Of a stretch of DNA of 64,000 bases, positions 8,107-60,375 are shown one piece after another. The position numbers were made by a program, and so were the translations under genes. The DNA comes from Candidatus Enterousia sp. (GTDB taxonomy: Bacteria > Pseudomonadota > Alphaproteobacteria > Rs-D84). A model generated the notes under the pieces. It saw only the letters and a program-made list of their open reading frames with translations, had not been told where the DNA came from and made no database searches. Within the stretch, counting starts at the first letter, position 1, and the number at the start of each line of letters is the position of its first letter. Where the stretch lies: NCBI GenBank assembly GCA_045613785.1, contig JAZLBQ010000004.1, positions 47,830 through 111,829 on the forward strand, given 5' to 3'.

Positions 8107-11100
8107 ATGCTGAAATTTTTCGTTCGCCGACCAATTACCACACTGATGTTTGTTTTAGTGTGGGTTGTATTGGGGTTGGTTTCATTTCCGAATATGAACA
8201 TTGAACGCACGCCTGCGGTTGATTTTCCGATGGTAACTGCGACCTTTGTTTATCCTGGTGCAACACCTGCAGAAATTGAATCTCAGATTATTAAACGTGC
8301 CGAAGACGCAATGTCAGAAGTGTCAGAATTAAAGAAAATAACATCTCAGGCTTATGAAAACAGTGGTTATGTTATGGCTGAATTTAACCTAGGTGTTGAC
8401 GTAAATGACAAGGCGACAGAAATCAAAACAAAACTAGATTCACTGATATCCGAATTTCCCGAGGATATGAATCAGCCTGTTGTCGAGAAGTTAAATCCAT
8501 TGCAGCAGTCTGTTGTAGATATTGTTTTGCACGGTGCAGACGCACGTGATTTGGAAGAGTATGTTGATAATTTCCTTTCTACAAAAATTACATCAATCAG
8601 TGGTGTTTCCAGTGTGTCGATTTTTGGTGGTCGTGAACGTGCAATTCGTATTGCGATGAATCCGGATTTGATGGCTGCAAACGGTGTAACGATAATGGAC
8701 GTAGTCTCTGCACTGGGGTCGCATAACTTGAACGTTCCTGGGGGTAAAATTGAGACAACAGCAAATTCATCAAACGTCCGTTTTGTAGGTGAATTTGCAT
8801 CGGTTGAAGAAATTGCAAATCTGCGTTTAACAACTGTTGAAGGTAACAAGTTCAAATTATCTGACATTGCCCAGATTTCTGATGCTGCCCGTGATATTGA
8901 AAACGGTGCACGTTATAATGGTGAATCTGTTGTAATTGCATCTGTGGTCAAGGCGTCAGATGGAAATGCAATAAATATATCACGTGCCTTGCACGAACGT
9001 CTGCCTCAGTTGCAATCGGATTTGGAATCACGTTTTCCGGGTGCACAGATGCAGATTGTTTCAGACTCGTCAATAACGATTGCAGATGAAACAGACAGCA
9101 CAATCAATGGTATTGTTCTGGGGGTTGTTTTAACTATTTTGGTTTTGTTAGCGTTTACTCGTAATTGGCGTTCAACGGTTATCGCAGGTGTAGTGATTCC
9201 TGCGTCATTGCTGGCTGGATTCTTCTTTATGGACAAAGATGGCTTTACAATCAATGCTATGACCTTGCTGGCATATTCTTCGGCACTGGGGACGTTGGTA
9301 TCGAATGCGATTATTTTGATTGAATCTGCCTTGCAAGAAATGCGTTCTGGCAAAAATTCCGAAGATGCCGCCATTGACGGAACTAAAAAAGTTGCCGTTT
9401 CTGTTTTGGCAGGTGTTGGCACAAACGTCGTAGTGTTCTTGCCGTTGGCGTTTATGGGCGGTATTGTTGGTCAGTTCATGGTTCAGTTTGGTATGACCGT
9501 TGTTTACTTGACATTGTTATCGTTGATGTTCTCGTTTACATTGACTCCGATGATGATTGCCAAGTTCCTGCGTCTAGGCAATCACGGCCAGGCCAAAAAA
9601 GAAAAACAAACATATCCAAAGCCGACCAGCACAGGTTGGTTGCGTCGTTGCTATGATTATCAGGCATCGCATCCGTGGCGTGTATTAGGGATAGTGTTTG
9701 TGATATTTATTTCATCTACGATGTTGATGAAGTTTGTTGGAAATGAGTTTCAGCCATCAACTGATGCGAACGAAATAACAATCACAGCACGTGCACCGAT
9801 GGGGGCGACATTTGAAAAGTCTGAATCAATTGCCGTTGATATAGAACAGGCCTTGACCCAGTTCCCAGAGGTTAAATCAACAACAGTAAAAATCGGCGAA
9901 CGTGGTCTTCAGAATATAACTGTGACTGTTGAATTAGTCGATGCATCTGAACGTAAATTATCAGACAAGATTTTAGCACAAAAAATCCTACCGGCGATTG
10001 CGAATATTCCAGATGCAGAAATTCAAATCCGGGCAGGCGAAGCAATGTCATCTGGTGTTTCATCGGATTTGGTTTTAAATGTGTTTGGTGAAGATGATGC
10101 GACTCGTGAAGCGTATGCGGACAGAATTATTGAAATTGTAAACCGTATTCCCGAAGTTCAGTCTGCTGTTCGTGCTCAGCAAGCACCTGCCATGGAAACA
10201 CAGTTTATTCCAGACCAAGACAAGATGAATTTCTGGGGTGTTCAAAATTCCTATGCAGGAACGACCTTGCGAACAGCACTTTACGGTAATGACGAATTCA
10301 AATACAAAGAATCCGGCGAAGAATACCCAATCATCTTGGAATTCGCCAAGCCCTTCAAAAATGCATCTTTGTTTGATACGGTCTATGTAAATTCGCAAAA
10401 AGGTATGGTGCCACTGTCGTCCTTAGGAACGGTCAAGACAGAACCAGGCACACCTGATATCCGCCGTGAAGACAAAAACAGATACACCGAAATTGATATC
10501 AATATTGGAAAATCAACAATGGGGCCAGTCCAGGCAAAGATTCAATCTGAATTAAATAAAATTGATTGGCAAGCCGGCTATTTTACCAAGTTTGGTGGTA
10601 TGTCTGATACCCAGGCAGAATCTGCCAGTGAAATTGGTCGTGCCTTCTTGTTGGCGACAATCTTGACCTTTATGTTGTTGGCTGCGATATTGAATTCATT
10701 AGTTCATCCGTTTACGATTGCCACGTCGATTTTGACCAGTTTCACAGGCGTATTCGTTATGATGTTCTTGTCCGGGGCGACAATGAACGTTGGTGCGATG
10801 TTGGCGTTTGTTATGTTGGTTGGTTTGGTGGTAAATAACAATATTTTGGTTTTAGAGCCAACTATTGTCCGAATTTCTCAGGGACAAGACGCAAAAACAG
10901 CCTTGTGGGCAGAATTGACCGACAAACGCAATATGGTATTGATGACATCGATTGCCGTTATTGCTGGTATGGTTCCACAGTTATGGTCTATTGACGGTAT
11001 GAAGGTCGCAATGGGTGCTGTTATGATTGGTGGTATGTTGGCCAGTCTGATATTTACCTTTACACTGACGCCGGCTTTATTCTTGCTTATGGAGCGTTTA

Positions 11101-11130
11101 CGCACATGGCGAACACGGCTGAAAAAATAA
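8107..11130 (+). CDS. RND efflux transporter permease (AcrB/HAE1-like), 1007 aa
   Basis: Twelve transmembrane segments and two large periplasmic loops. Typical RND motifs, such as the LSLMFSFTLTP region. Confidence 0.95.
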   Translation: MLKFFVRRPITTLMFVLVWVVLGLVSFPNMNIERTPAVDFPMVTATFVYPGATPAEIESQIIKRAEDAMSEVSELKKITSQAYENSGYVMAEFNLGVDVNDKATEIKTKLDSLISEFPEDMNQPVVEKLNPLQQSVVDIVLHGADARDLEEYVDNFLSTKITSISGVSSVSIFGGRERAIRIAMNPDLMAANGVTIMDVVSALGSHNLNVPGGKIETTANSSNVRFVGEFASVEEIANLRLTTVEGNKFKLSDIAQISDAARDIENGARYNGESVVIASVVKASDGNAINISRALHERLPQLQSDLESRFPGAQMQIVSDSSITIADETDSTINGIVLGVVLTILVLLAFTRNWRSTVIAGVVIPASLLAGFFFMDKDGFTINAMTLLAYSSALGTLVSNAIILIESALQEMRSGKNSEDAAIDGTKKVAVSVLAGVGTNVVVFLPLAFMGGIVGQFMVQFGMTVVYLTLLSLMFSFTLTPMMIAKFLRLGNHGQAKKEKQTYPKPTSTGWLRRCYDYQASHPWRVLGIVFVIFISSTMLMKFVGNEFQPSTDANEITITARAPMGATFEKSESIAVDIEQALTQFPEVKSTTVKIGERGLQNITVTVELVDASERKLSDKILAQKILPAIANIPDAEIQIRAGEAMSSGVSSDLVLNVFGEDDATREAYADRIIEIVNRIPEVQSAVRAQQAPAMETQFIPDQDKMNFWGVQNSYAGTTLRTALYGNDEFKYKESGEEYPIILEFAKPFKNASLFDTVYVNSQKGMVPLSSLGTVKTEPGTPDIRREDKNRYTEIDINIGKSTMGPVQAKIQSELNKIDWQAGYFTKFGGMSDTQAESASEIGRAFLLATILTFMLLAAILNSLVHPFTIATSILTSFTGVFVMMFLSGATMNVGAMLAFVMLVGLVVNNNILVLEPTIVRISQGQDAKTALWAELTDKRNMVLMTSIAVIAGMVPQLWSIDGMKVAMGAVMIGGMLASLIFTFTLTPALFLLMERLRTWRTRLKK

Positions 11131-11133
11131 GCA

Positions 11134-11161
11134 CCGCCCCCATTATGGGGGCTTTTTTTTA
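11134..11161 (+). terminator. Rho-independent terminator after the RND operon
   Basis: GCCCCCATTATGGGGGC hairpin followed by TTTTTTTT. Confidence 0.65.
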
Positions 11162-11166
11162 ATAAC

Positions 11167-11194
11167 TTGCAATGGTGTAAATATGGTTTATAAT
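11167..11194 (+). promoter_or_regulatory. Candidate pnp promoter TTGCAA-16-TATAAT with a leader of about 100 nt
   Basis: -35 at 11167-11172 and -10 at 11189-11194. PNPase genes typically carry long, structured, autoregulated leaders. Confidence 0.4.
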
Positions 11195-11285
11195 TGCCAT
11201 GGCGAAGACTAAATTGTTCCTTTGTGTGTTTATCACAGAATGCACAAAAGAATGATTTTTCTTCGCAAAATCAGAACTAAATAAA

Positions 11286-13466
11286 ATGGAGAAAAAAATG
11301 GTATTTGGTTTATTCAAGAAAGACGAAAAAGTCCAATTAAACAACCCAGTTGCTGTTGAAATTCCATACGGCAATACAACATTGCGTCTGGAAACGGGTC
11401 GTATGGCGAAACAGGCGAATGGTTCAGTTTTGGCGACCATGGGTGAAACAATGGTTTTGGCAACTGTTTGTGCGGAAAAGTCTGCCGTCGAAGGGCAAGA
11501 TTTCTTTCCATTGACTGTTGACTACCAAGAAAAATTTGCATCTGCTGGTCGTATTCCAGGTTCACGTGATAGACGTGAAGGCAAAGCATCAACTGCTGAA
11601 ACATTGACAGCACGTTTGATTGATCGCCCAATCCGTCCTTTGTTCCCAGAAACATTCAAGAACAAAGTTCAGATTATTGCCCAGGTGTTTTCTTATGACA
11701 AAGTCAATCAGCCTGACATTTTGGCAATGATTGCATCATCTGCTGCATTGGCTTTAAGTGGCGTTCCTTTCCAGGGGCCAATTGGTGCTGCTCGTGTTGG
11801 CTATGCAGACGGTGAATACATTTTGAATCCTTCTAAAAAACAGGTCGAAGATTCAGAAATGGATTTGGTTGTTGCTGCAACAAACAACGGCGTTTTGATG
11901 GTAGAATCTGAAATTGGCGAACTGGACGAAAAGACAGTTCTGGGTGCAGTTAAATTTGGTTTTGATGCACAACAGGCCGTTATCAACGCAATCAACGAAT
12001 TGGCTGCCAAGGCTGGCAAAGAACGTTGGGCAACACCTGAAAAAACACCAGAACAGATTTTGATGGAATCTGATTTTGAACAGTTTGCACCTGCAATCGA
12101 AGCGGCTTTGCAAATCAAAGAAAAATTGGTTCGTTTGGAAACATTGTCAGACATTCATGCCCAGGCAAAAGCACGTATTCCAGAATTGTTCCCAGAAACA
12201 GAACGTGCCACATCTACGTTGGAATCATGGGCTGATGAAGTTATTGAAAATTTAACAGCACGTATTATGCGTGGCAACATCTTGGCTGGCAAACCACGTA
12301 TTGACGGCCGTGATAACAAGACAGTTCGTCCAATTGAAATTGAATTGGGTGTTCTGCCACGTGCACACGGTTCAGCATTGTTTACCCGTGGTGAAACCCA
12401 GGCTTTGGTATCATTGACATTGGGTGGTGGCAAAGACGCATTGCCAATTGAATCATTAGATGGTGCCGAAGAACGTGATTTCATCTTGAACTATAACTTC
12501 CCAGGTTATTCTGTTGGTGAATGCAAAGGTTTGAAATCTCCGGGTCGTCGTGAAATTGGTCACGGAAACTTGGCATGGCGTGCAGTTCATCCAATGGTTC
12601 CAACCCGCAGCGAATTTGATTATGTAATCCGTATTGTATCGGATATTTTGGAATCAAACGGTTCTTCATCAATGGCGACAACATGTGGTGCGACATTGGC
12701 GATGATGGACGGTGGTGTTCCAATGAAACGTCCGGTTGCAGGTATTGCAATGGGCTTGATTAAAGAAGGTGATGATTACGCTATCTTGACTGACATCTTG
12801 GGTGACGAAGATCACTTGGGTGATATGGACTTCAAGGTAACAGGAACAGACCAGGGTATCACAGCCTTGCAGATGGATATTAAAATCACATCTATCACAT
12901 TTGAAATTATGGAACATGCATTGGCTCAGGCCAAAGATGGTCGTATGCACATCTTGGGCAAGATTGAAAAGGCAATCAAAAAGCCACGCTGCAATGTTTC
13001 AGAATATGCTCCACAGGCATATACAATGAAAATCAACCCAGACAAAGTTCGTGAAGTAATCGGCAAGGGCGGTTCTGTAATTCAGGCTCTGGTTCGTGAA
13101 ACTAACACGATTATTGACTTGGAAGACGATGGATCAATTAAAATTATGGCAACAACCAAAGAAGATGCAGACGAAGCAATCCGTCGCATCAAAGACATTG
13201 TTGCAGAACCAGAAGTTGGCCAGATTTACAAAGGAACAGTTTCTGGTATGAAAGACTTTGGTCTGTTTGTTAAAATTATGAACGGATTCGAAGCAATGGT
13301 TCATATTTCTGAAATCACCGGCGAACGTATTGCAAAAATCGAAGATACAAAAATCAAAGAAGGTGATACAGTTTACGTTCGTTATCTGGGTGCTGACAAA
13401 CGTGGCAAAACACGTATGTCAATGGTTGGTATCGACCAGAAAACTGGTGAAGAAATCAAGAAATAA
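11286..13466 (+). CDS. pnp: Polynucleotide phosphorylase
   Basis: Two RNase PH domains plus KH and S1 domains (GKGGSVIQ, S1 at the C-terminus). An alternative start is the ATG at 11298 (MVFGLF), which has a GGAG RBS 6 nt upstream. Confidence 0.95.
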   Translation: MEKKMVFGLFKKDEKVQLNNPVAVEIPYGNTTLRLETGRMAKQANGSVLATMGETMVLATVCAEKSAVEGQDFFPLTVDYQEKFASAGRIPGSRDRREGKASTAETLTARLIDRPIRPLFPETFKNKVQIIAQVFSYDKVNQPDILAMIASSAALALSGVPFQGPIGAARVGYADGEYILNPSKKQVEDSEMDLVVAATNNGVLMVESEIGELDEKTVLGAVKFGFDAQQAVINAINELAAKAGKERWATPEKTPEQILMESDFEQFAPAIEAALQIKEKLVRLETLSDIHAQAKARIPELFPETERATSTLESWADEVIENLTARIMRGNILAGKPRIDGRDNKTVRPIEIELGVLPRAHGSALFTRGETQALVSLTLGGGKDALPIESLDGAEERDFILNYNFPGYSVGECKGLKSPGRREIGHGNLAWRAVHPMVPTRSEFDYVIRIVSDILESNGSSSMATTCGATLAMMDGGVPMKRPVAGIAMGLIKEGDDYAILTDILGDEDHLGDMDFKVTGTDQGITALQMDIKITSITFEIMEHALAQAKDGRMHILGKIEKAIKKPRCNVSEYAPQAYTMKINPDKVREVIGKGGSVIQALVRETNTIIDLEDDGSIKIMATTKEDADEAIRRIKDIVAEPEVGQIYKGTVSGMKDFGLFVKIMNGFEAMVHISEITGERIAKIEDTKIKEGDTVYVRYLGADKRGKTRMSMVGIDQKTGEEIKK

Positions 13467-22892: not shown

Positions 22893-22926
22893 AAAAAAAT
22901 ACGCCACAAGGGCGGATTTTTATTTT
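22893..22926 (+). terminator. Rho-independent terminator after yidC
   Basis: CGCCACAAGGGCGG hairpin preceded by an A-run and followed by TTTTTATTTT. Confidence 0.55.
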
Positions 22927-23289
22927 AGGTTCAGTTTTTTATACAACGCCTCTGGCGTTTGAATCCATGGGGATTTTAGTTTTATCATTGTCTTGGTCAA
23001 CTGCACACAGGTAAAACATAATTCAGTATTTACTGCTGTGTTTAATTGGCCAGCAAAGACCAAGAACTGCCACCCGTGCTTTTGCAAGATAAATAAATCA
23101 CGCAATTTTAATTCTATTTTTTTAATGTTATTGTGCTTTACAAATTGATATAGAATCATTTTGTTTTTATGAACGTAAATAGGTGCGACGTGCTTAAAAT
23201 TCTTGCAGAACAGTTTTGCCAAAAATTTATTAGATTTATTTGAAAATGCAATTATAAACATTTTTTTTTGCCTGTTATTTTGTGTAAAA

Positions 23290-23315
23290 GCAAATCCCCA
23301 ATCGGGGATTTTGAT
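23290..23315. terminator. Hairpin terminator at the 3' end of the 114-aa minus-strand gene
   Basis: AAATCCCCAATCGGGGATTT. Confidence 0.4.
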
Positions 23316-23659
23316 TATTCAATCCAGCCACGCTGACGAGCATTTTGTTCCAGTTCACGCATTGCGTTTCGCCACTGTTCTGCTGCACGATTTTCTGCCC
23401 AAATATGTTGATGAGGAGCTCGTCTTTTGTCGCCAAATTTTTTCATTACTACTAATTGTTCTTCGGTCAATTTTCCTGCCAGATATAATTTTGTGATCAT
23501 TGATTCTACATCTAAAATTTCGCATGGTCTGCGTGTTTGAGACGAACGATTCCGCATAAAAGTATTGTTCTGAACAGCTTTTGAATACAAAAACCAAAAC
23601 CATAATTGTTCTGCATTTTGAAATTTTTCAGTCTGAATCATAGGCATTGTTTTGGTCAT
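23315..23659 (-). CDS. Hypothetical small protein, 114 aa, with a possible helix-turn-helix segment
   Basis: ORF MTKTMPMIQTEKFQNAEQLWFWFLYSKAV...ITKLYLAGKLTEEQLVVMKKFGDKRRAP.... It sits directly downstream of the virB10 terminators on the same strand, and a hairpin lies at its 3' end. Confidence 0.5.
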   Translation of the reverse strand: MTKTMPMIQTEKFQNAEQLWFWFLYSKAVQNNTFMRNRSSQTRRPCEILDVESMITKLYLAGKLTEEQLVVMKKFGDKRRAPHQHIWAENRAAEQWRNAMRELEQNARQRGWIE

Positions 23660-23835: not shown

Positions 23836-23951
23836 AAAAAGTGTGCCAACTGGCACACGGTTTTCTATTTATCTTAATCAAAGTCTTATGTGAAATTTTT
23901 CTCCTTTGTAAATATTGTTAAATTAAAACCCGCCGATGGCGGGTTTGTTTA
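23836..23951 (-). terminator. Two tandem rho-independent terminators downstream of virB10 (minus strand)
   Basis: Hairpins AAACCCGCCGATGGCGGGTTT (23925-23945) and GTGTGCCAACTGGCACAC (23846-23863). On the minus strand each is followed by a U-run. Confidence 0.55.
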
Positions 23952-26354
23952 TTACAGAATTGGTGGGAAGCAATCACCGCCTGTTTCAGGGCAACAGTTA
24001 AATCCTTGTTCGCCCATATCGGTGTATATTTCTCCTGGACAGCAACCATTTGCATCTGGTGCAATATCGCCTTCGCACATTATTTGTTCAACGACTTCCT
24101 CGACCGCTGGTTTCTCAGGTTTCTCAAATGGATTTTCAATTGCACCTGTTTCTTCGTCGTATTTCAGGCCCAACACCTGTTCATTATATGCTTGCTGCCC
24201 CTGATCTGCAACATATGCAATACTGTTCTGATTGCTTGTTGATTGCTGATTTTGGAATACAGCTTCCTGCTTTGCATTATTTATTGCCTTATATTGACTA
24301 GACTGGCAATAGAACAACACTGTTCTGTAATCTAGGCCTGCGTTGTATATCTCTTCTGCACTTGCTGTAACCTTGCCTGTGCTTAAATCGCAATACTGTG
24401 CCAAATTAAATGAACGCACCTGACCAACCCATTCTTCCCCTGACTGGTCAATATTCACAGAGTTTGCAACGCTATTGTAATTAAACCTATTTTGTTGTAA
24501 TGATTTACTGTAATAACTTTCCATCTTACAGCTTTTGCCACCGTCTGGACACACAACAATCAAGTCCTCTGGGGAATAGACTGTGATACGTGTTCCTGCT
24601 GCGATTGTAAACGGTGGAACAGTGTTATCCATCATATCGACCAACAGCTTTTGTGCAACCTGATTCCAGGCAGTAATGATTTCATTTTTTGCCAGTTCTG
24701 ATGAACGCACAGTTCCACTTTGAACGACTGTGTTGTTGTCCAAATCGATTTGATTTACAAACGCATCGCTGACAGGAGCAATCAAATTCACCGCTGCTGG
24801 CACAATCGCTGTCAACATTGGCATAATAAATTGTTCCATATAATCAGTGCTGCCACGTCCTGGCACGCCAACACGTCCTTGGGCATCACCTGCAAAAGGC
24901 TGATTTCCTTGATTGTTAAAGTTAAATTCAACACCATCTGGTCGTATAAACTGATACCAGTTTATTTGCATACGTCCAATTGCCTTGTATGGGCCTGGCA
25001 AATCACCTGTCACATATCCCAGCATCAAAGTTCCTGTTGGGATAATAATATTACGTCCGTCGTCTGAATAAACGTTTCTATCAACAGTTGCACGAACGGG
25101 CAGGGGGCGTCCATTTTTGAAAACTTCTGCATCGGCTCGAACTTCAGATACAATAGTTGCAGGAATTGGCTTGTATTGACGCAAAATGAAACTGCGGTCA
25201 TACGGTTGTGATGCAACAACGCCATCACCCGAAGTGCCAAATATTACTTCCGTAGTTTCTTTTAGCTTTAGTCCACCAAAAGCTTCCATACCGTTTGCAG
25301 TCAGGCGACCTGCACCACGACTGTTCATTACGACTGCATTTGCTTCATCCGAGTCCAGTTGGCGTGCACGATTTACAACCTTTATTGCAGGTGCATTAGA
25401 CAGTTCTGGGATTTTGCCATCCCATGTTGCAGCAAAAACGATATGGTCTGCATCTGTTCCTATCTTTTTACCTTTGTTATCAGTGATAATACCATTGTCT
25501 GGATTGTATGTTCCTGTTGGTTTTTCGCAGTTTTTATCTGAAAATGGGTGAAATTTATATGTTCCACCATCGGGTTTTATCCAACCGATTTGGACGCCAA
25601 AATTATTATAACCTGGGAAAGCAAAGTCCGTGCATCCATCAGGGATTTCAATTTTTTCAGTTTTTGCTGTCTTTGTCACAGGTTTTTCAATCTTTACTGA
25701 CGGAGAAATTGTTTCGACGTTCTTTTTAATTTCTTCTTTGACAGGCTCTGGTTCTGGCTTTGCTTCAATCACAGGCTCTGGTTCTGGCTCTGGTTCTGGC
25801 ACGATGACAGGTTCTGGGATTGGCTCAGGTTTTTTTTCAACGACTGGTGAAACAGCCCCCAAGGTCAGAACAATTTTCGAAGTCTTTTTCATTGCATCAG
25901 TTTCATCTGCTTTGTGCCAGTCAACGAACACAGGAACTTGTTCTGTTGCCATTGGTGCAGTTGGTGCATATGAAACAATCACCCCACAGGCTAGATTTTC
26001 GTTTATCTGTCCCATTTCAGTGCAAGTTCCTTTGACATCAAATCCCTTGATGTCCTTGTGGCGACGAACAGAAATCACCTTAACAGGAGCTGTTGCAGAA
26101 ATCTTGATTGTTTCAGTTTTTTTCTGTCCGATTGTCGTTTCTGCCCAGTTTATCATATCAGGGGAAATGACAATATCTACTGATCCGCTATCAGTGCTAG
26201 AAATATCTGATTTGCTTGATTTTTTATTATTTCCACTCAGCAGCAAGGTCAACAATATCAGCACCACAACAAATGCAGCCGCCATCAACAACCACTGCAC
26301 CCGTTTTGGTGTATTTTGTCGCATTTCTGAAAACTGTTCTTTGAAACTAGCCAT
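23952..26354 (-). CDS. virB10: Type IV secretion VirB10/TrbI-family protein, enlarged to 800 aa
   Basis: Short cytoplasmic N-terminus, a transmembrane helix (LLMAAAFVVVLILLTLLLS), a Pro-rich PEPEPEP linker and a TrbI/VirB10 beta-barrel core (RLTANGMEAFGGL...IGRMQINWYQFIRPDGVEFNF...PPFTIAAGTRITVYSPEDL). In addition there is an extra domain of about 120 aa before the linker and a Cys-rich C-terminal extension of about 190 aa (...GCCPGEIYTDMGEQGFNCCPETGGDCFPPIL). Confidence 0.85.
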   Translation of the reverse strand: MASFKEQFSEMRQNTPKRVQWLLMAAAFVVVLILLTLLLSGNNKKSSKSDISSTDSGSVDIVISPDMINWAETTIGQKKTETIKISATAPVKVISVRRHKDIKGFDVKGTCTEMGQINENLACGVIVSYAPTAPMATEQVPVFVDWHKADETDAMKKTSKIVLTLGAVSPVVEKKPEPIPEPVIVPEPEPEPEPVIEAKPEPEPVKEEIKKNVETISPSVKIEKPVTKTAKTEKIEIPDGCTDFAFPGYNNFGVQIGWIKPDGGTYKFHPFSDKNCEKPTGTYNPDNGIITDNKGKKIGTDADHIVFAATWDGKIPELSNAPAIKVVNRARQLDSDEANAVVMNSRGAGRLTANGMEAFGGLKLKETTEVIFGTSGDGVVASQPYDRSFILRQYKPIPATIVSEVRADAEVFKNGRPLPVRATVDRNVYSDDGRNIIIPTGTLMLGYVTGDLPGPYKAIGRMQINWYQFIRPDGVEFNFNNQGNQPFAGDAQGRVGVPGRGSTDYMEQFIMPMLTAIVPAAVNLIAPVSDAFVNQIDLDNNTVVQSGTVRSSELAKNEIITAWNQVAQKLLVDMMDNTVPPFTIAAGTRITVYSPEDLIVVCPDGGKSCKMESYYSKSLQQNRFNYNSVANSVNIDQSGEEWVGQVRSFNLAQYCDLSTGKVTASAEEIYNAGLDYRTVLFYCQSSQYKAINNAKQEAVFQNQQSTSNQNSIAYVADQGQQAYNEQVLGLKYDEETGAIENPFEKPEKPAVEEVVEQIMCEGDIAPDANGCCPGEIYTDMGEQGFNCCPETGGDCFPPIL
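25745..25836 (-). repeat. Simple-sequence repeat (GGTTCTGGC/GGCTCTGGT)n encoding the PEPEPEP linker of VirB10
   Basis: Directly visible nonamer/hexamer periodicity on the plus strand. It encodes PEPEPEPEPV on the minus strand. Confidence 0.6.
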
Positions 26355-45464: not shown

Positions 45465-46196
45465 ATGACACGATACAAAGTTATTTTAGAATATGATGGC
45501 ACAGATTTAATTGGCTGGCAGGAAAATCGCCAAGGGGATTCTGTTCAATCATTAGTCAAAGATGCGATTGAAAAATTCTGTGGTGCTCGTCCTGATGTTG
45601 TTGGTGCTGGTCGCACAGATTCAGGCGTTCACGCTGTTGCGATGACTGCGCATTTTGACATAGACGGCACACATTCTGCCCAAACTGTTATGCATGCCTT
45701 AAATTTTTATCTGGTTCAAAGTCCTGTTCGGGTTTTGTGTTGTGAAATTGTTCCTGATGATTTTAATGCACGCTTTGATTGTGTTGCACGTCATTATAAA
45801 TACATTGTTCTAAATCGTGGTGCATCACCAGTATTGCAAAAGAACCGTGTGTATTGGGTGCCACGACCATTGAATGTTGATGCAATGCGAAGTGCGGTGG
45901 CACGTCTAATTGGTAATCATGATTTTACCAGTTTTCGTGCATCAGAATGTCAGGCAAAATCCCCTGTTAAAACATTAGATAAAATTGAAATCACGCAACA
46001 CGGCGATGAAATAATATTTGAGTTTTCTGCCCGTTCATTTTTGCATCACATGGTTCGCAACATTGTTGGCACGTTGATTGAAATAGGACTGGGCAAGTCT
46101 TTGGATATTGATGAAATATTGGCTGCAAAAAATCGTTCTGCGGCAGGTCCAACCGCCCCCGCATCAGGCTTGTATTTTATCCGTGCAGATTATTAG
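45465..46196 (+). CDS. truA: tRNA pseudouridine(38-40) synthase TruA
   Basis: GAGRTDSGVHA catalytic motif. Confidence 0.9.
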   Translation: MTRYKVILEYDGTDLIGWQENRQGDSVQSLVKDAIEKFCGARPDVVGAGRTDSGVHAVAMTAHFDIDGTHSAQTVMHALNFYLVQSPVRVLCCEIVPDDFNARFDCVARHYKYIVLNRGASPVLQKNRVYWVPRPLNVDAMRSAVARLIGNHDFTSFRASECQAKSPVKTLDKIEITQHGDEIIFEFSARSFLHHMVRNIVGTLIEIGLGKSLDIDEILAAKNRSAAGPTAPASGLYFIRADY

Positions 46197-48148
46197 TTCC
46201 AGCGGCGTTTTGTAGTTGTGTATTTAACACGTCCGCCAGGATAAATTACAAATCCGCCTCGCAGAATTTTATGACCGCAATTTTCTGATTTTATATCAAA
46301 GTATGACACAATATATCTGACGCTGTCGTCATTGCATAACGATTTAATGTTGTTCATCAGTGGAACAAACTTTTGAATATATACGATATCGTTATATCGA
46401 TAGACGCCTTTGTTGTGCTTGTATCGTTTGTTTGGTGTGTTTGTGGCTTCTCCGTTAAATTTCTTCCAGGTTTCAAATGCAAAATAGTGATTTGATGAAC
46501 GGGATTTATTAAATTCTAGTTTGCCGTTATCATCGACAAACGCAACCAGTTCATTATCGTCAGTCGTCCAGAAAATTGGCTTTGGATTTGTCTGGACTAA
46601 AACAATTCCGATTCCAACAAACAGTGCAAATAAAACGCAGTTTATTTTCATCTTTATATTTCGAATTAAAATCAGACACATAAAACCGACAATAAAGCAA
46701 ATCATTGCATTGTTTGGAATGTGTGGCATATCTATGTTTGTCAATGGTAATTCTGAAATGCTGCGTGCGATATTCAGTGTTGTATCGTAAATCAAATGAG
46801 CCAGTTTTATTGGGGATAATATTCCAAACATTCCTGTAATTGTTCCAATCATAACCAGTGGCATAATTGCAACCGAAAATACAGGCAGTAAAATCAGGTT
46901 GCCAATCAAACTGTATGTTGGCAATGTTCCAAAGTGTGCCGCCACAAATGGGGCGGTAAACAGTGTGGCCACCAGTGAAGTCAAAAGCATTGCATAAATT
47001 ATTTTCAAGATTTTGTTTTCTGGCATCTTTGGTTTGATTTCATAATACAGCCAAATCAATCCGAATACTGCAGCAAACGACAGTTGAAATCCTGCCTGCA
47101 TAACATAGTGTGGGTTTATCAAGAAAGTTGCACAAAATGCCAGTGCTATATTTCGCATTGAAAACGCACTGCGTCCAAATATAAAGGCCATAAATACCAA
47201 TGTTGTCATCAAGAAAGCACGAATTGTTGCGACATCACAGCCGGACAAAAATAAATATCCAACCAGCCCAATCCACGCACATAATATTCCTGGAATTTTA
47301 GCCGGCACCCGTCGCACAATCCATGGCACAGCCCGAAACAAGGAAACGAAAATCAAAAACAACCAACCACCAACCAATGTCATGTGAAATCCACTGATTG
47401 ACCAAACGTGGCCAATGCCACTGCTAACCCAGATAGCAGCATCGTTTTCTGGAATTACGTTTTTATAGCCTAATACTAAACTGTCAACCAGAAAAGAATT
47501 TGTGTTGTTGTGAATATTGTTTCTGAACTTGTTCAGACTGTATTTAGTGTTATTTTCAATTACCTGAATGTTGTTTGCGTATCCTGTCGCACTTAAATTA
47601 TTAAAATATGCCCAGCGTGCATAGTCAAATGTTTCAGGTGCTGTTGCGGCTGATGGTTTGAATAATCCAACATTTGCACTAACTACGTCACCAATCTGGG
47701 GCAGGGCAATATTATCACCAACAGAAACTCGCACGATTGCATCGCCAGTTCCAGCTTTGATATCTTCTGCATTGGTGCTCAGATAAATTCTGCTTTTATC
47801 ATCTGTAAAATCAATTTTCTGAACTGTTCCAGTGATGTCCAGATTATGTAAGTTGCGTTTTATAACAGGTGTGTTGACAAGATTTGTATAAGCATTCGCA
47901 TAACAAAAACCGAAAGCAAAAATAAATATTGCCCGAACCAGGGTTGGAATTTTATTTACGGTCGCAAGTGTGATTAAAATCAGTGATAAAATTCCGGGGC
48001 AAAATAAACCAGGTTCTGTTGTCAGTGAAAAATACAAAGCCGCCCCTGCGGCCATCAGAAATGGCACGAACAGAAATCTGTTTTGTTGTTGAAGATTCAA
48101 CCATTTTCGCATGGAAAAAGTATAGGAATTTATTAGATTGCATATCAA
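46193..48148 (-). CDS. comEC: ComEC/Rec2-family DNA internalisation channel protein (651 aa)
   Basis: N-terminal DUF4131-like transmembrane region and the competence domain (SGFHMTLVGGWLF). It lacks an obvious C-terminal metallo-beta-lactamase domain. Convergent with truA, 4-nt overlap. Confidence 0.85.
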   Translation of the reverse strand: MICNLINSYTFSMRKWLNLQQQNRFLFVPFLMAAGAALYFSLTTEPGLFCPGILSLILITLATVNKIPTLVRAIFIFAFGFCYANAYTNLVNTPVIKRNLHNLDITGTVQKIDFTDDKSRIYLSTNAEDIKAGTGDAIVRVSVGDNIALPQIGDVVSANVGLFKPSAATAPETFDYARWAYFNNLSATGYANNIQVIENNTKYSLNKFRNNIHNNTNSFLVDSLVLGYKNVIPENDAAIWVSSGIGHVWSISGFHMTLVGGWLFLIFVSLFRAVPWIVRRVPAKIPGILCAWIGLVGYLFLSGCDVATIRAFLMTTLVFMAFIFGRSAFSMRNIALAFCATFLINPHYVMQAGFQLSFAAVFGLIWLYYEIKPKMPENKILKIIYAMLLTSLVATLFTAPFVAAHFGTLPTYSLIGNLILLPVFSVAIMPLVMIGTITGMFGILSPIKLAHLIYDTTLNIARSISELPLTNIDMPHIPNNAMICFIVGFMCLILIRNIKMKINCVLFALFVGIGIVLVQTNPKPIFWTTDDNELVAFVDDNGKLEFNKSRSSNHYFAFETWKKFNGEATNTPNKRYKHNKGVYRYNDIVYIQKFVPLMNNIKSLCNDDSVRYIVSYFDIKSENCGHKILRGGFVIYPGGRVKYTTTKRRWN

Positions 48149-50221: not shown

Positions 50222-50522
50222 GCGCGTTTCCCCTCCTTTCTGGGCGTATGTTGTAAAAATTATCTTGTTTTTTGTGTAAATACGTTGGTATTTACAAAAC
50301 TGTCAGACAATTTTTAATTTTGTTTTTATGTTTTCCTAAAATACTGCGGTTTCTAGCGGTTTTTCAGGGTTTTTATTTCTTCTTCTCTTGTCTATACAAA
50401 CATCTTAGAACAAAAACGAATCGGAGGTCAAGCACAAAATATAATTATTTTCATTTTATTTAAAATTTTTTTAATTTTGCTTTCTGTGGCATAAAATACC
50501 ATAAAATATTTATAAAATGTCA

Positions 50523-50551
50523 TTGACAACCATGAAATGCCGTGCTAGATT
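50523..50551 (+). promoter_or_regulatory. Candidate mraZ promoter TTGACA-17-TAGATT
   Basis: -35 at 50523-50528 and -10 at 50546-50551. It lies inside the ORF-track extension (50517..), which argues that the true mraZ start is the ATG at 50610. Confidence 0.45.
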
Positions 50552-50609
50552 CCTTATGAAGTCAAGAAAGGATGGTGGGACAATCTCCCGAATTAAAGAA
50601 GATCATAAA

Positions 50610-51059
50610 ATGTCATTGTTTCTCTCATCTTATGAAAATCGTTTGGATACCAAGGGGCGGATTTCTGTTCCAGCGTCCTTTCGGGCTTCGGTTTCTGATG
50701 AAAAATTTGCAGGCATTGTTTTATATCGTTCCTTTACTAATAATTGTATCGAAGGTTTAACGCTGTCTCGTATGGAGCAGATGGCAGCAGCAACTGATAA
50801 AATGGGTGTTTTTGACAGTGAATTAGACGATTTGACTGCGTTGTTATTTGCTGATGCACGCCAGTTGGCATTTGATGTGACGGGGCGTGTTGTTATTCCA
50901 GCGGATTTGTTGGCACATGCTGGTATAACTGATACTGCGGTATTTGTTGGTCGTGGTAACAGTTTTCAGATATGGAATCCTGATGCGTTTCGTGCTGCCC
51001 AGACTAAATCTTTGGAAAATCTGCGTCGCACTCGTCCGAATATTAAAATAGGCGACTAA
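50610..51059 (+). CDS. mraZ: Transcriptional regulator MraZ
   Basis: MSLFLSSYENRLDTKGRISVPASFRAS... with duplicated SpoVT/AbrB-like halves. 149 aa from the ATG at 50610. Confidence 0.85.
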   Translation: MSLFLSSYENRLDTKGRISVPASFRASVSDEKFAGIVLYRSFTNNCIEGLTLSRMEQMAAATDKMGVFDSELDDLTALLFADARQLAFDVTGRVVIPADLLAHAGITDTAVFVGRGNSFQIWNPDAFRAAQTKSLENLRRTRPNIKIGD

Positions 51060-55672: not shown

Positions 55673-55777
55673 TATATTTTTTAATGATTTAGGAACGTGT
55701 TCTTAGTATTTGTGATTTTTGTGTTAATTTTTATTTTCTGTTATGGTAAAATAATAAAATAGGAAGGGTTGTTTTTT

Positions 55778-58072
55778 ATGAAAAGATTTGTTGCAGTTCT
55801 TAGTGGTCTTTTATTTTTGCCAGCATATGCCCAGGCTGTGCCTGTTTATAGCGAGGCTGATGTCGATACGTTGGTTGGTGATTTGCCTGGTAAAAACGAA
55901 GTAGAGGTTGATGATATTGATGCTGCTGCATTTGTAGTTCCTGTGGCACAGGCGTCTTCTCGTAATCCACGTGCAAGTGCTGCGTCTGCATCACGTGCTG
56001 TTCCTGCTGGGGCGGGGACGACGCCTAATACACGTTCTGCTTCGACACGTGCGACAATTGGTTCCAGAAATGTTTCAAGTTCTACGATTGCACGCAGTGC
56101 GGCTGCGAATTCGATTGCTCGTTCGACTGGTCGTTCTGTTGTTTCTACTGCGGGGCGTAATGCATCACGGGTGGCACGCAATTCAACAGTCCCTGTTGCT
56201 CAGTCTGTTACAGAGCGTCGTTCAGGTGTATCTGTAAATTCTGCTACGAATACTGCACGTTCGGTCAGTGCACGTGTTCCGACGATTGCCACAACGGTCG
56301 GGACTTCTTCTGCAACCACTAAATCAGAGCCTGTAGCTGTTGCGGATGTTGTGTCAAAAATGGACGAAGTTGCGAACTTGACTGCAACATGCAAGACACA
56401 ATATACAGAATGTATGGATAATTTCTGCAATGTTCTGGATGATAACCAGGGGCGTTGCTCTTGCTCAAAAAATATCAAGAACTACGAGAAAACAGAAAAT
56501 GCCTTAAAAGAAGCGACCGAGGCATTAAAGGATATTGCACAGCAGATTCAGTATATTGGTCTGACAGGTGAAGAGATTGAGATTTTGTTTTCCCAGACCG
56601 AGGCTGAAGCACAAATGCAGCAAACAAATGACAGTTCTCGTCTGAAAAACGACTTGGATAAAATTAAAAAACTGTTGGTTGAAGTCAAGGGGTCAACAGC
56701 CTCATCGTCTGAGGTGAATATAAGTTTTGACTTGTCTGGTTTGCTAGATTTTAGTGTGGATAGCAGTGGGTTTGATTTGGCGTCGTTGTTTGGTAGCACG
56801 TCTGCGAATACGTCCAGTATCAGCAATCAGCGTGGTGAACAGTTGTATAAGACTGCTGCGGCTCGTTGTAAAAAGGCGGTTTTAGAAGAATGTGATACTA
56901 TGGGTGTTGATGTATCTGTTATATCTAATGCCTATGACATGGAAATTGATAAGCAGTGTGTTGCGTATGAGCGTCGATTGACTGACACGAACGAAGAAAT
57001 GGTTCAGACAGTTCGTAATGCGAAAAATGTGTTGCAACGTGCTCGTTTGATGGTTGCTCAGAATAAAAATACATATGATTTACGTGGTTGTGTAAACGCA
57101 CTTGATTCTTGTATGCAGGATGACTTTGTTTGTGGTTCTGATTATGAGTATTGCCTGGATCCGACGGGTAAGTATATTGTGAACGGTGAAATTGTTGTTG
57201 GGTCGATGCCAGGTTATGTTATCGATGCTAACCAAACGCCGGCACCATCGACTGATTATCCTAAGGAAACTCTGTATGGCACATGGTATTATGATGAAAA
57301 TGTCTATGCCTGGGGGATGTCTGGTAATATATCAGACTATATAGATAAAAACAACACTTCTTCGGCTGTGACCAAGACTGATGCAAATATGGCGAAATAT
57401 CTGCAATATAAAATTGGGTATAATGATGGCGGCAAGAATTATGGAATGTGTATGTCTGTCTTGAACAAGTGTCAAGATATCACATACAGTAATGGTAAAT
57501 ATCAACCAGATAACCAAGTTGTTCGTGAATACCTGCGTCGCACATTGGTTCAGATAAAGGCCAGTCAAGATGCAGTTTTGCGTGATTATGCATCAAGCTG
57601 CATAGCTGATGTTTCAACTTGTTTGTCGTCAAATAATTACGAAGCCGGCAATACAACTAAAAGCAATATCGCAATCAATGCATGTCGTGCGGAAATTGTA
57701 ACGTGTATGTCTGTAAATGGTGATACGACCAAGACCCCAACCCCAAGTAGTATGAAACAATGGGTTGATGCAATCAATTCAGTTTCATCAGGCGATTCTG
57801 GCACAACGAGTTCTCCTGTTCCTGTTGGTTGCTCTCAAGAATATTTTTATTATAATGGTTCGACCTGTGTTTCGTGCAAGAATGGAACATGGGACGACGT
57901 GCAAAAAGGATGTAAATGTACCACATATTATAATGGGGCGATAACAGAGTATACGGTGGGCGGTGGGTGCTCATGCACAGGTGATACCCGTGAAGAAGCT
58001 GATTATTGCACGGGTGAAATATATGGTTATCACCTGTTTACATCTGGTGGTAGTTATCAACCTGATAAATAA
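55778..58072 (+). CDS. Secreted Cys-rich protein, paralog A (about 764 aa)
   Basis: Signal peptide MKRFVAVLSGLLFLPAYAQA after an AGGAAGGG RBS. Acidic stretch, then an Arg/Ser/Ala/Thr-rich low-complexity region of about 130 aa. Conserved Cys-rich core (CKTQYTECMDNFCNVLDDNQGRCSCSKNIKNYEKTE...). Divergent Cys-rich tail (CVSCKNGTWDD...). Confidence 0.8.
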   Translation: MKRFVAVLSGLLFLPAYAQAVPVYSEADVDTLVGDLPGKNEVEVDDIDAAAFVVPVAQASSRNPRASAASASRAVPAGAGTTPNTRSASTRATIGSRNVSSSTIARSAAANSIARSTGRSVVSTAGRNASRVARNSTVPVAQSVTERRSGVSVNSATNTARSVSARVPTIATTVGTSSATTKSEPVAVADVVSKMDEVANLTATCKTQYTECMDNFCNVLDDNQGRCSCSKNIKNYEKTENALKEATEALKDIAQQIQYIGLTGEEIEILFSQTEAEAQMQQTNDSSRLKNDLDKIKKLLVEVKGSTASSSEVNISFDLSGLLDFSVDSSGFDLASLFGSTSANTSSISNQRGEQLYKTAAARCKKAVLEECDTMGVDVSVISNAYDMEIDKQCVAYERRLTDTNEEMVQTVRNAKNVLQRARLMVAQNKNTYDLRGCVNALDSCMQDDFVCGSDYEYCLDPTGKYIVNGEIVVGSMPGYVIDANQTPAPSTDYPKETLYGTWYYDENVYAWGMSGNISDYIDKNNTSSAVTKTDANMAKYLQYKIGYNDGGKNYGMCMSVLNKCQDITYSNGKYQPDNQVVREYLRRTLVQIKASQDAVLRDYASSCIADVSTCLSSNNYEAGNTTKSNIAINACRAEIVTCMSVNGDTTKTPTPSSMKQWVDAINSVSSGDSGTTSSPVPVGCSQEYFYYNGSTCVSCKNGTWDDVQKGCKCTTYYNGAITEYTVGGGCSCTGDTREEADYCTGEIYGYHLFTSGGSYQPDK
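56390..57230 (+). repeat. Direct repeat copy 1 (conserved core of the tandem paralogs)
   Basis: Aligns to 58807..59640 with mostly synonymous or conservative differences. Confidence 0.8.
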
Positions 58073-58170: not shown

Positions 58171-60375
58171 GTGAAAAGATTTTTAGCTGTCTTAAGTGGG
58201 TTACTTGTATTGCCTGCATATGCCGAAATTGCACCTGTTTATTATGAAATAGACAGTGATTATGAATCGGTCGATGTCGCTGGTGACAGTGAACAGGATG
58301 TTGATGAAATTGATGTCGCTGCTGTTGCTGTGCCGGTTTCTCAGACAACTGCTCGTGCGTTGCGTGCATCAAATGCGGCGTCGTCACGTGCAATGCCAAC
58401 AGGTGCCAGGGCGGTAAATTCTCGTTCTGCAGCGACCCGTGCAACGACTTCTCGTAATGTTTCGAATTCAAATGTGGCACGCACTGCTACAAATACGGCA
58501 ATGGCACGTTCTGGTGCATCACGTGTTGCGTCTCGTTCAATGGCACGTTCTGGTGCGACACAGATTGCCACAACACGTCAGGCAATGCAGAATAATGGAA
58601 CAACTGCACGTGCAGCGATTGTTCAAACTGATACGGTTCGCACCCCATTATATACCGGTCGGGTCAGTTCACGTGCCAGTGCTGTTCGTGCACGTATCCC
58701 AACAATTACATCTGTTTCTGGTAACGTTTCAACAACAACTGGCGGCACGGTTGATGCAGCTACAGCTGCGGCTGAAATGGACGAATTGGCACAGTTGACT
58801 GATTTCTGCAAGGCACAATACACAGATTGTATGGATAACTTCTGTAATGTTCTGGACGATAACCAGGGGCGTTGTTCTTGTTCAAAGAATATCAAAAATT
58901 ATGAAAAGACAGAAACTGCGTTAAAAGAAGCGACCGAAGCATTAAAAGACGTCGCGCAACAAATTCAGTATATTGGTCTGACCAGTGATGAAATTGAAAC
59001 ATTGTTTACTCAGACAGAAGCTGAACTTGAAATGCAACAAACAACAGACAGTTCACGTCTGAAAAACGATTTGGATAAAATTAAAAAGCTGTTGGTTGAT
59101 GTAAAAGGTTCGGCTGCATCTTCGTCCGAAGTGGATATGAGTTTTGATTTGTCTGGTCTATTGGACTTCAGTGTGAACAGCACGGGCTTTGATTTGACAT
59201 CATTATTTGGTGGCACAACAACAAATACATCCAGTATCAGTAACCAACGTGGTGAACAGTTGTATAAAACAGCAGCCTCACGTTGCAAAAAGGCAGTTTT
59301 GGAAAATTGTCAGAACCAAGGCGTTGATATTTCAATTATCTCAAACGCATATGACCTGGAAATCGACAAGCAGTGTGTGGCATATGAACGTCAGTTGACA
59401 GATACTAACGAAGAAATGTCGCAAACTGTCCGCAATGCTAAGGGGGTTTTGCAGCGTGCACGTTTGATGGTTGCCCAGAACAAGAATTCGTATGACTTGC
59501 GTGGCTGTGTAAATGCACTGGATTCATGTATGCAGGACGATTTTGTCTGCGGAACAGATTATGAATACTGTCTGGATCCAACCGGCAAGTATATCGTAAA
59601 CGGCGAAGTTGTTGTTGGGTCAACGCCTGGCTTTATGGTCAAAAAGGACGAGGGATCTTCTGCAGTATTCCCAGATGAATCTGATAAGGACGCTAAGGGT
59701 AAAAATACCCTGTTGGCTGGCTGGTATTATGGCGAAAAATATGCTTGGGCTGATACAAGTGCTAATGGTGATTTGATGGGGTATATTGAAAACTATACCA
59801 AAACATCAGCTGTAGAAAAGCCAACGTCTGTATATGCTGAATATCTGCAATATAAAATTGGATATAACGACGGAACAAAAAATCACGGTATGTGTATGTC
59901 TGTTCTGAACAAATGTCAAGACCTTTCCTATGAAAAGGGAAAGTATAAGCCTAATAATAATGTAGTTAAGGAATATTTGACCCGGACACTGACCCAAATT
60001 AAGGCGGCTCAGGACGAAATATTGGCAGAATATGCATCAAATTGTTTGTCTGACGTGTCATCGTGTTTGTCATCAAATAACTATGTTGCAGAAAACACGA
60101 CCAAAGCAAACATTGCAATCAATGCGTGTCGTTCTGAAATTGTCACGTGTATGTCTGTAAATGGTAATGCAGCGGCTACTCCAAATCCGGAAGAAATGAA
60201 GAATTGGGTTGCGGGAATGGTTGGTTGCACCAAGGAAGGCTTTGAATGGGATTCAAGTAATAAGAAATGTGTGTCCTGTGTTGGTGGCAGCTGGGATGCA
60301 ACTGATAACACGTGTGATTGCCCATCCGGTGCTTCTTATGATGTAGTCAATGGGTGCGTAAAAGCAGCAAGCTAA
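58171..60375 (+). CDS. Secreted Cys-rich protein, paralog B (734 aa; GTG start)
   Basis: MKRFLAVLSGLLVLPAYAEIAP. GTG start preceded by an AGAGGGAAGGA RBS. Same architecture as paralog A. The conserved core is roughly 85 percent identical at nucleotide level by eye. The C-terminal tail retains CVSCVGGSWDA. Confidence 0.8.
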   Translation: MKRFLAVLSGLLVLPAYAEIAPVYYEIDSDYESVDVAGDSEQDVDEIDVAAVAVPVSQTTARALRASNAASSRAMPTGARAVNSRSAATRATTSRNVSNSNVARTATNTAMARSGASRVASRSMARSGATQIATTRQAMQNNGTTARAAIVQTDTVRTPLYTGRVSSRASAVRARIPTITSVSGNVSTTTGGTVDAATAAAEMDELAQLTDFCKAQYTDCMDNFCNVLDDNQGRCSCSKNIKNYEKTETALKEATEALKDVAQQIQYIGLTSDEIETLFTQTEAELEMQQTTDSSRLKNDLDKIKKLLVDVKGSAASSSEVDMSFDLSGLLDFSVNSTGFDLTSLFGGTTTNTSSISNQRGEQLYKTAASRCKKAVLENCQNQGVDISIISNAYDLEIDKQCVAYERQLTDTNEEMSQTVRNAKGVLQRARLMVAQNKNSYDLRGCVNALDSCMQDDFVCGTDYEYCLDPTGKYIVNGEVVVGSTPGFMVKKDEGSSAVFPDESDKDAKGKNTLLAGWYYGEKYAWADTSANGDLMGYIENYTKTSAVEKPTSVYAEYLQYKIGYNDGTKNHGMCMSVLNKCQDLSYEKGKYKPNNNVVKEYLTRTLTQIKAAQDEILAEYASNCLSDVSSCLSSNNYVAENTTKANIAINACRSEIVTCMSVNGNAAATPNPEEMKNWVAGMVGCTKEGFEWDSSNKKCVSCVGGSWDATDNTCDCPSGASYDVVNGCVKAAS
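58807..59640 (+). repeat. Direct repeat copy 2 (conserved core of the tandem paralogs)
   Basis: See copy 1. Confidence 0.8.

Follow-up and report, generated by a model that had tools for sequence, protein, structure and literature searches.

We have analysed a 64-kb stretch of DNA from Candidatus Enterousia sp. (64,000 nucleotides of contig JAZLBQ010000004.1, hereafter the window), in particular an open reading frame (ORF) of 800 amino acids (aa) on its reverse strand. The product is a divergent but genuine VirB10, encoded in a virB8-virB9-virB10 operon and carrying three conserved additions with paired cysteines. The gene is chromosomal and vertically inherited. The best explanation, to which we assign a probability of about 0.6, is that this is the VirB10 belonging to a VirB-type type IV secretion system (T4SS), fixed in the chromosome, inherited vertically and elaborated in one bacterial lineage. 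The parts of a canonical VirB10 are all retained, namely a short cytoplasmic tail, one transmembrane (TM) helix, a Pro-rich periplasmic linker and the beta-barrel of the outer-membrane core complex. The bitopic layout, with a hydrophobic segment at aa 21-40 and a Pro-rich linker, was read from the sequence. Coordinates of all features are collected in Table 1.

VirB10/TrbI profiles are matched by aa 381-600 alone. The Pfam TrbI domain (PF03743) matches at aa 392-598 only, with 64 bits against a cut-off of 35 (E = 2.2e-17), and is matched by 56 of 56 full-length relatives; outside this match lie about 340 aa between the TM helix and the barrel and about 200 aa past the barrel. The NCBIfam model T4SS_VirB10 (NF038091) gives 59.4 bits (E = 3e-16) against a cut-off of 220, and the ComB10 model of the same collection gives E = 7e-12, also below its cut-off. 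PDB matches to the barrel include CagY (the best), ComB10 (2bhv), TrwE, Xanthomonas citri VirB10 and TraF. Matches in Pfam, in NCBIfam and, with single sequence and family profile alike, in PDB are confined to aa ~330-600, and the middle module and the C-terminal tail have no match in Pfam or PDB. Judged by these profiles the additions are not ordinary VirB10 subdomains, which had been named beforehand as one way in which the proposal of an enlarged protein might fail. Canonical VirB10/TrbI proteins (Agrobacterium tumefaciens VirB10, pKM101 TraF, R388 TrwE and X. citri VirB10) have the same cytoplasmic tail, TM helix, Pro-rich linker and C-terminal barrel, and are likewise encoded right after virB8 and virB9. 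In comparison with them the protein described here is about twice as long and has fourteen conserved Cys; it has a predicted Ig (immunoglobulin)-like domain between the TM helix and the linker, a beta module between the linker and the barrel, and about 200 aa beyond the barrel. The TrwE and X. citri VirB10 chains in PDB are 395 and 406 aa long, and Rickettsia typhi VirB10 has 481 aa (PMC2653234).

An earlier sequence-only reading of this DNA had proposed an enlarged VirB10 in which a beta-rich region stands between the TM helix (aa 21-40) and a PEPEPEP linker, and in which the barrel is followed by a tail with a Gln/Asn-rich stretch and a terminal cluster of six Cys. The ORF and all of the peptides quoted for it were found in their places, and the order of parts is as described. 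The N- and C-terminal additions are genuine and conserved; the module at aa 238-320 had been overlooked. Within the barrel itself, the segment at aa ~503-575 (identity 0.87-0.96) is presumed to be the two-helix antenna, since the alignment to ComB10 spans a helical insert. The presumed antenna helices are joined by a loop, SDAFVNQIDLDNNTVVQSGTVR, which comprises about 22 aa within window positions ~24630-24845 (-) and has an identity of 0.89-0.96 over 81 sequences. When 11 residues were deleted from the corresponding loop of X. citri VirB10, a VirB10-msfGFP chimera remained partially functional (PMC6536674).

The ORF and its layout are shared by a large group of species. Relatives were collected by a scan of one genome per species, which found 99; the best 80 of these 99 were kept and, together with the query, make up the alignment of 81 sequences used throughout. 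The 80 relatives are named Candidatus Enterousia, unclassified Alphaproteobacteria or 'Rickettsiales' metagenome-assembled genomes (MAGs), and their samples came from rumen, caecum, colon, faeces and termite gut. The virB10 homolog is one unbroken ORF in 80 of 80 species, 771-846 aa long (trimmed to the aligned start) and with the same layout; nowhere among these 80 are the extra regions separate genes, as they might have been had the enlargement been spurious. A single alignment extends from query residue 1-7 to 799-800 in 76 species. In the other 4 the best single match starts at ~240, owing to greater divergence at the N-terminal end. Full-length clusters in the protein database number more than 120 (identity 54-81%), publicly labelled 'TrbI/VirB10 family protein' or 'hypothetical', and divergent proteins from 'Rickettsiales bacterium' MAGs (P0139, P0142 and P0199) retain the whole layout of Ig-like domain, middle module, barrel and knot. 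The ratio of nonsynonymous to synonymous substitution rates (dN/dS), calculated between the query and the nearest species (89% identical), rises from 0.014 in the barrel through 0.016 (knot), 0.022 (middle module), 0.041 (aa 1-40, cytoplasmic tail and TM helix), 0.053 (Ig-like domain), 0.071 (connector) and 0.12 (C-terminal tail) to 0.21 in the linker. Purifying selection on the knot and the middle module is close to that on the barrel. The probability that the 800-aa ORF is a product of misassembly, frameshift or gene fusion is negligible: we found no point in its favour, the same ORF recurs in 80 independent species assemblies and in the protein clusters just mentioned, and dN/dS is well below 1 in every region. 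The unbroken ORF and the identical gene order across species therefore exclude such an artefact.

The three virB genes are located among housekeeping genes. On one side of the operon are nusG-rplK-rplA...rpoBC, and on the other are yidC-lspA and a K+/H+ exchanger gene; the order rplA-rplK-nusG / virB8-virB9-virB10-two small ORFs / yidC-lspA-kefB is conserved among the 80 loci, with virB8 and virB9 next to virB10 in 75-79 of them. The three genes are on the same strand with intergenic gaps of 13 and 18 bp. This tight packing, together with a hairpin after virB10, makes them look like a three-gene operon, of which the hairpin is the probable end. The virB9 product is also enlarged, its 518 aa being roughly double the usual length (R. 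typhi VirB9a has 247 aa; PMC2653234). Residues 201-320 of VirB9 are 97-99% identical over 76 species whose VirB10 proteins share only 46-89%. The C-terminal region of VirB9 (aa 401-518) is conserved, with a Cys pair C501/C512, and might tentatively be called SPOR-like: the match of aa 478-516 to the peptidoglycan-binding SPOR domain of Pfam is borderline, at 19.2 bits under a cut-off of 21. Downstream of virB10 are two small ORFs, of 114 aa (23315-23659, -) and 113 aa (22920-23261, -), which keep their syntenic place in 74 and 69, respectively, of the 80 species. Neither matches any family significantly; the matches to DIRP, DUF1374 and AcrID1 are weak. Since they lie beyond the terminator-like hairpin, they are probably separate transcripts.

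The first of the additions to VirB10, at aa ~58-167, can be assigned with moderate confidence to the Ig-like sandwiches of PapD/ASH type. The ASH domain (PF15780) matches at aa ~60-140 in 6 of 57 relatives at E <= 0.01; only P0086 scores above the gathering threshold (28.6 bits versus 27), and the related Cep192_D4 domain was matched in 2 other members. The second addition, a module of ~65-80 aa, was predicted by AlphaFold2 from a 57-sequence alignment to form six short strands, and it is more conserved than the N-terminal Ig-like domain. The linker between these two additions varies from 49 to 110 aa between species, some of which have long (PE)n runs. Amid this variable sequence most species preserve the motif EIKxEIExIAP, or more fully (K/Q)EEIKxEIExIAP, which may be a binding site for another subunit. 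The linker DNA had been described as a perfect (GGTTCTGGC)n-like repeat from 25745 to 25836, and therefore as prone to changes in length. The repeat is perfect only over 27 bp, and the array around it is imperfect (Table 1). Variation in linker length holds between species. Rapid variation at the level of strains is possible but not evidenced, as the linker of the nearest species is equally long and differs by substitutions with no indels. The bitopic inner-membrane layout with a Pro/Glu/Lys-rich linker spanning the periplasm also recalls the TonB-type transducers; however, the protein has no TonB C-terminal domain, and the NCBIfam match covers aa 159-234 only, with 18-20 bits against cut-offs of 265-315. 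All profile matches to the linker (TonB, PARP) are weak and sub-threshold.

The third addition follows the barrel and consists of a tail and a terminal six-Cys knot. The tail comprises a C602/C609 loop, a helical sub-domain around C655/C683 (predicted local distance difference test score, pLDDT, 82-90), a variable stretch rich in Gln/Asn, an AYNEQVLGLxY..NPF motif and an acidic/Pro spacer. The knot has the cysteine pattern C-x10-CC-x14-CC-x6-C in the sequence PDANGCCxGEIYTDMGxxGFNCCPxxGGDCFPP. A Foldseek comparison of the tail with PDB gave E-values above 4 throughout and hence no significant match; the top neighbour was a RING-like domain and most of the others were EGF, granulin and inhibitor-cystine-knot (psalmotoxin) modules. 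Like those of EGF-like, granulin and inhibitor-cystine-knot type, the knot has about 40 aa, six Cys, two CC pairs, a 'CCP' and a predicted beta-hairpin. With no significant match in sequence or fold, this likeness is a lead only.

The distribution of the knot is wider than that of VirB10. Among 1.84 billion cluster representatives, a profile of the tail found 253 clusters at E <= 1e-3, the best 150 of which were sorted into classes. The whole tail is confined to VirB10-like proteins of ~770-850 aa, while the last ~45 residues are found more widely. VirB10-like proteins, recognised by the presence of barrel, middle module or tail, account for 30 of these 150 clusters. A further 32 belong to a bitopic family other than VirB10, here called family A, whose members have ~680-850 aa when full-length and consist of a conserved cytoplasmic N-domain resembling a coiled coil, a TM helix, a periplasmic stalk that is long and rich in Pro/Glu, the motif EEEILASKPAYNVSQNEKMFVA and a terminal knot. 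It is represented by P0286 (positions 10001-12397 (+) of contig L081) and includes P0155, P0157, P0160, P0165, P0176, P0184 and P0179, the last with two knots. Its layout presumably resembles that of polar organisers such as PodJ. The largest class (46 of 150) comprises small signal-peptide proteins of ~180-270 aa from MAGs of gut Alphaproteobacteria (P0137, P0146, P0148, P0152, P0161, P0162, P0174, P0178, P0182 and P0183 among them), which share the N-terminal motif R-x-x-C-x-D...YRRDC-x-K-x-A-x-GR and have 1-3 knots in tandem. Fragments or other proteins make up the remaining 42. The knot is a portable and mobile module that the same bacterial group has also placed on unrelated envelope proteins. 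In this respect the earlier suggestion of a shared disulfide-rich module was borne out by proteins other than the one for which it was made. No further knot-bearing gene was detected near virB10 with a hidden Markov model (HMM) of the knot, either in the window or in 80 loci of 22 kb. The family A gene on L081 follows gcrA and adjoins a prepilin peptidase gene and several unannotated genes; a T4SS connection for the family was considered and dropped, there being no T4SS genes among these neighbours. The composition of L081 (GC 44%, tetranucleotide r = 0.84) fits the same lineage, which is weak evidence. The position of the knot at the end of Pro-rich stalks and its tandem occurrence in small secreted proteins point to a role in envelope docking or ligand binding.

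Several observations weigh against an elaborated VirB-type T4SS, or against details of it. No gene for VirB2-6, VirB11 or VirD4 was found in the window or within 10 kb on either side of the operon in the 80 loci. As the NCBIfam score for VirB10 is below cut-off, the protein must be regarded as a divergent member and not as a close equivalent of the characterised VirB10s. The query itself has no ASH match in Pfam, so that the ASH assignment comes from its orthologs. The models of the tail and of the middle module are of moderate quality overall (mean pLDDT 72 and 71, respectively), and no fold match points to a particular function for either. The placement of the additions in the assembled machine is one that we purely infer. 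Finally, respiratory chains are reported to be absent in Enterousia (PMC12306168), so the usual quinone-dependent DsbB route to disulfides may be missing. The lack of VirB4, VirB6, VirB11 and VirD4 nearby leaves room for another role of VirB8-VirB9-VirB10: instead of belonging to an effector-secreting or conjugative T4SS, the set might serve DNA uptake as a ComB-like system or be an orphan envelope scaffold; in the uptake version the enlarged VirB10 would be an outer-membrane entry port feeding ComEC. We consider this unlikely. Beside the operon virB4, virB11 and virD4 are indeed absent in 80 of 80 species, but in Rickettsia the T4SS genes are scattered over three genomic locales (PMC2653234), so the missing neighbours are not decisive. 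ComB10 is among the best matches of the barrel in both NCBIfam and PDB, yet the VirB10 model outscores it (3e-16 versus 7e-12) and both scores are far below cut-off. The window does contain comEC, the gene for the DNA-uptake channel (46193-48148, -; Pfam Competence, E = 3e-51), but comEC is widespread and here is unlinked to the operon. Uptake of DNA would also suit a group such as Rs-D84, which is reported to be without nucleotide biosynthesis (PMC12306168).

Two other alternatives concern the cysteines and the C-terminal tail. VirB10 has 14 Cys, of which 12 are invariant and two are present in 98-99% of the 81 sequences. The cytoplasmic, TM and linker parts have none. The Ig-like domain and the middle module have 2 each, aa 331-600 has 0 or 2, the tail 4 or 6 and the knot 6, giving totals of 14, 16 or 18 and never an odd number. 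Extra Cys thus come only as pairs, as one would expect of disulfides, and the cysteines would accordingly be joined in the periplasm. Alternatively, the invariant Cys, above all the six of the knot, could bind a metal (Zn or an Fe-S cluster) in a host that is a strict anaerobe without a respiratory chain. Metal binding stays a minor rival because of that missing chain; no Dsb gene was found among the window ORFs scanned (the scan covered the window, not the rest of the genome), and the top Foldseek neighbour, although non-significant, is RING-like. We nevertheless regard it as quite unlikely, in view of the even Cys counts in every region, the location of all Cys in the predicted periplasmic part, the preponderance of disulfide-rich EGF, granulin and inhibitor-cystine-knot modules among the other weak Foldseek neighbours, and the lack of a conserved His or Asp ligand pattern alongside the CC pairs. 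It is also conceivable, but very unlikely, that the C-terminal tail, instead of being fixed in the core, is exposed or released as an adhesin or ligand, for example by reaching the surface or by cleavage after residue ~600. The segments aa 601-645 and 701-759 are variable and partly of low complexity, as flexible tethers would be, and the knot is also found in small signal-peptide proteins that could act alone. However, no conserved cleavage motif is evident where the barrel meets the tail, and the C602/C609 loop begins right after the last barrel strand. We know of no route by which the C-terminus of a VirB10 could cross the outer membrane.

If the protein belongs to an elaborated T4SS, as we prefer to think, its additions would enlarge the core complex as periplasmic domains stabilised by disulfides. 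Of these, the Ig-like domain would lie close to the inner membrane and the middle module beneath the barrel, with the tail and knot under the outer membrane. Solved systems contain 14 copies of VirB10 per machine (PMC7286519), and therefore the additions would make extra periplasmic rings or decorations, comparable perhaps to what has been added in the Cag, Dot/Icm and Xanthomonas systems. The functions of the added modules are inferred; the knot might be a common unit for envelope docking or ligand binding beneath the outer membrane. A VirB10-msfGFP chimera of X. citri still assembles into foci and kills (PMC7286519, PMC6536674), so a VirB10 can carry an added domain. A more far-reaching proposal would make the knot a hitherto undescribed envelope-targeting or ligand-binding domain specific to gut Alphaproteobacteria of the Rs-D84 type, present in ~14 copies around an enlarged T4SS core as well as on a PodJ-like protein with a Pro-rich stalk and on small multi-knot proteins, with such T4SS serving as a device to attach to and draw on a partner cell; taken as a whole this is speculative and unlikely.

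Among the known systems that come close is the Rickettsiales rvh T4SS with its RvhB10, which is likewise chromosomal and vertically inherited in an alphaproteobacterium of reduced genome, with the gene order virB8-virB9-virB10. In Rickettsia the cluster runs on into virB11 and virD4, whereas here it is followed by the terminator-like hairpin and two small unrelated ORFs. Lineage-specific insertions have been reported for Rickettsia VirB10 (PMC2653234). Those insertions flank a barrel helix, in contrast to the whole domains outside the barrel described here. PMC6536674 calls the N-terminal region of VirB10 variable and reports C-terminal extensions of VirB7, VirB8 and VirB2, but mentions none in VirB10. 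Helicobacter pylori CagY and Legionella pneumophila DotG also have a VirB10-like C-terminal domain on a much larger protein and an enlarged core complex. In CagY and DotG the extra mass consists of repeats on the N-terminal side, with the VirB10 domain last in the chain. The protein described here differs in having a C-terminal extension as well, and in that its additions are discrete Cys-paired domains and not repeats.

Candidatus Enterousia is common in the guts of ruminants, horses, birds and humans. Members of this genus (order Rs-D84) have genomes of about 0.75-1.0 Mb, do not respire, lack amino-acid, nucleotide and lipid biosynthesis, and have been proposed to be obligate symbionts or parasites of other cells, with no mention of secretion systems (PMC12306168). 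A study of cervid gut colonisation factors names Enterousia merely as a prevalent genus. We found no literature connecting Rs-D84 with type IV secretion, and no published description of this VirB10 architecture or of the knot. In so small a genome a strongly conserved and elaborated VirB8-VirB9-VirB10 operon is a plausible candidate for interaction machinery. For the study of T4SS the interest lies in a VirB10 with a domain-sized C-terminal extension and an apparently Ig-like domain at its inner-membrane end, beside a VirB9 of twice the usual size. These features suggest that the core complex may have been enlarged by growth of its conserved subunits, not by new ones. Pfam has no model of the six-Cys knot, which might be made into a family of its own and assayed for what it binds.

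Table 1. Features of the virB8-virB9-virB10 operon and regions of VirB10 (positions in the window; identities over the 81 aligned sequences)
Feature	Position	Strand	Evidence and remarks
virB10 ORF	23952..26354	-	800 aa plus stop codon; ORF list, Pfam TrbI E = 2.2e-17, full-length orthologs
Cytoplasmic tail (aa 1-20) and single TM helix (aa 21-40; WLLMAAAFVVVLILLTLLLS)	26235..26354	-	Sequence read; identity 0.55-0.75, no Cys
Extra module 1, putative ASH/PapD-type Ig-like beta domain, aa ~58-167	25854..26183	-	Cys pair C111/C123; Pfam ASH PF15780 in orthologs
Pro/Glu-rich linker, aa 168-237	25644..25853	-	P 21%, E 23%; Pro/Glu/Lys-rich
Conserved linker motif (K/Q)EEIKxEIExIAP, aa ~207-218	25701-25736	-	In most species
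Perfect DNA repeat GGCTCTGGTTCT x 2.2 (12-bp unit)	25774-25800	.	Tandem Repeats Finder; 27 bp, encodes PEPEPEPEP (aa 186-194)
Imperfect array of 36-bp period around the perfect repeat	25739-25831		Tandem Repeats Finder; 76% matches
Extra module 2, predicted all-beta, aa 238-320	25395..25643	-	Invariant Cys pair C241/C276; identity 0.54-0.81; pLDDT 82-92
Variable connector into barrel, aa 321-380	25215..25394	-	Identity 0.27-0.40 with gaps; CagY match from ~330 of the profile
VirB10/TrbI beta-barrel, aa 381-600, including presumed two-helix antenna, aa ~503-575	24555..25214	-	Identity 0.60-0.96
Extra module 3a, C-terminal tail, aa 601-755	24090..24554	-	
Extra module 3b, six-Cys knot, aa 756-800	23955..24089	-	Identity 0.72-0.88; six Cys invariant; pLDDT 83-87, predicted beta-hairpin
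virB9	26373..27929	-	518 aa; Pfam CagX E = 5e-22; operon of virB10
virB8	27943..28614	-	223 aa, first operon gene; Pfam VirB8 E = 8e-11; syntenic in 75 of 80 loci
Terminator-like hairpin, then T8	23841..23858	-	~95 nt past the virB10 stop codon; consensus scan, pattern match only

Elsewhere in the window, an ORF of 673 aa at 1347-3368 (-) has no Pfam match, and the same applies at E <= 1e-3 to two ORFs of 364 and 547 aa that follow mraZ (50517-51059, +) and extend to 53975. Two further ORFs, at 55769-58072 (+) and 58171-60375 (+), are tandem paralogs without a Pfam match in either. The first of these, termed paralog A in the sequence-only reading, had been tentatively linked to the tail of VirB10 through a shared GEIY motif. 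The similarity amounts to 9 of 18 residues with a pairwise E-value of 0.22, the ORF is not matched by the knot HMM at E <= 10, and the motif is missing from the second paralog; the resemblance is a chance match. Paralog A is not a paralog of VirB10 but one of two tandem Cys-rich secreted proteins unrelated to it. These proteins, of 767 and 734 aa, are 61% identical to each other and have N-termini resembling signal peptides and many Cys, as for example in CMDNFCNVLDDNQGRCSCSKN.

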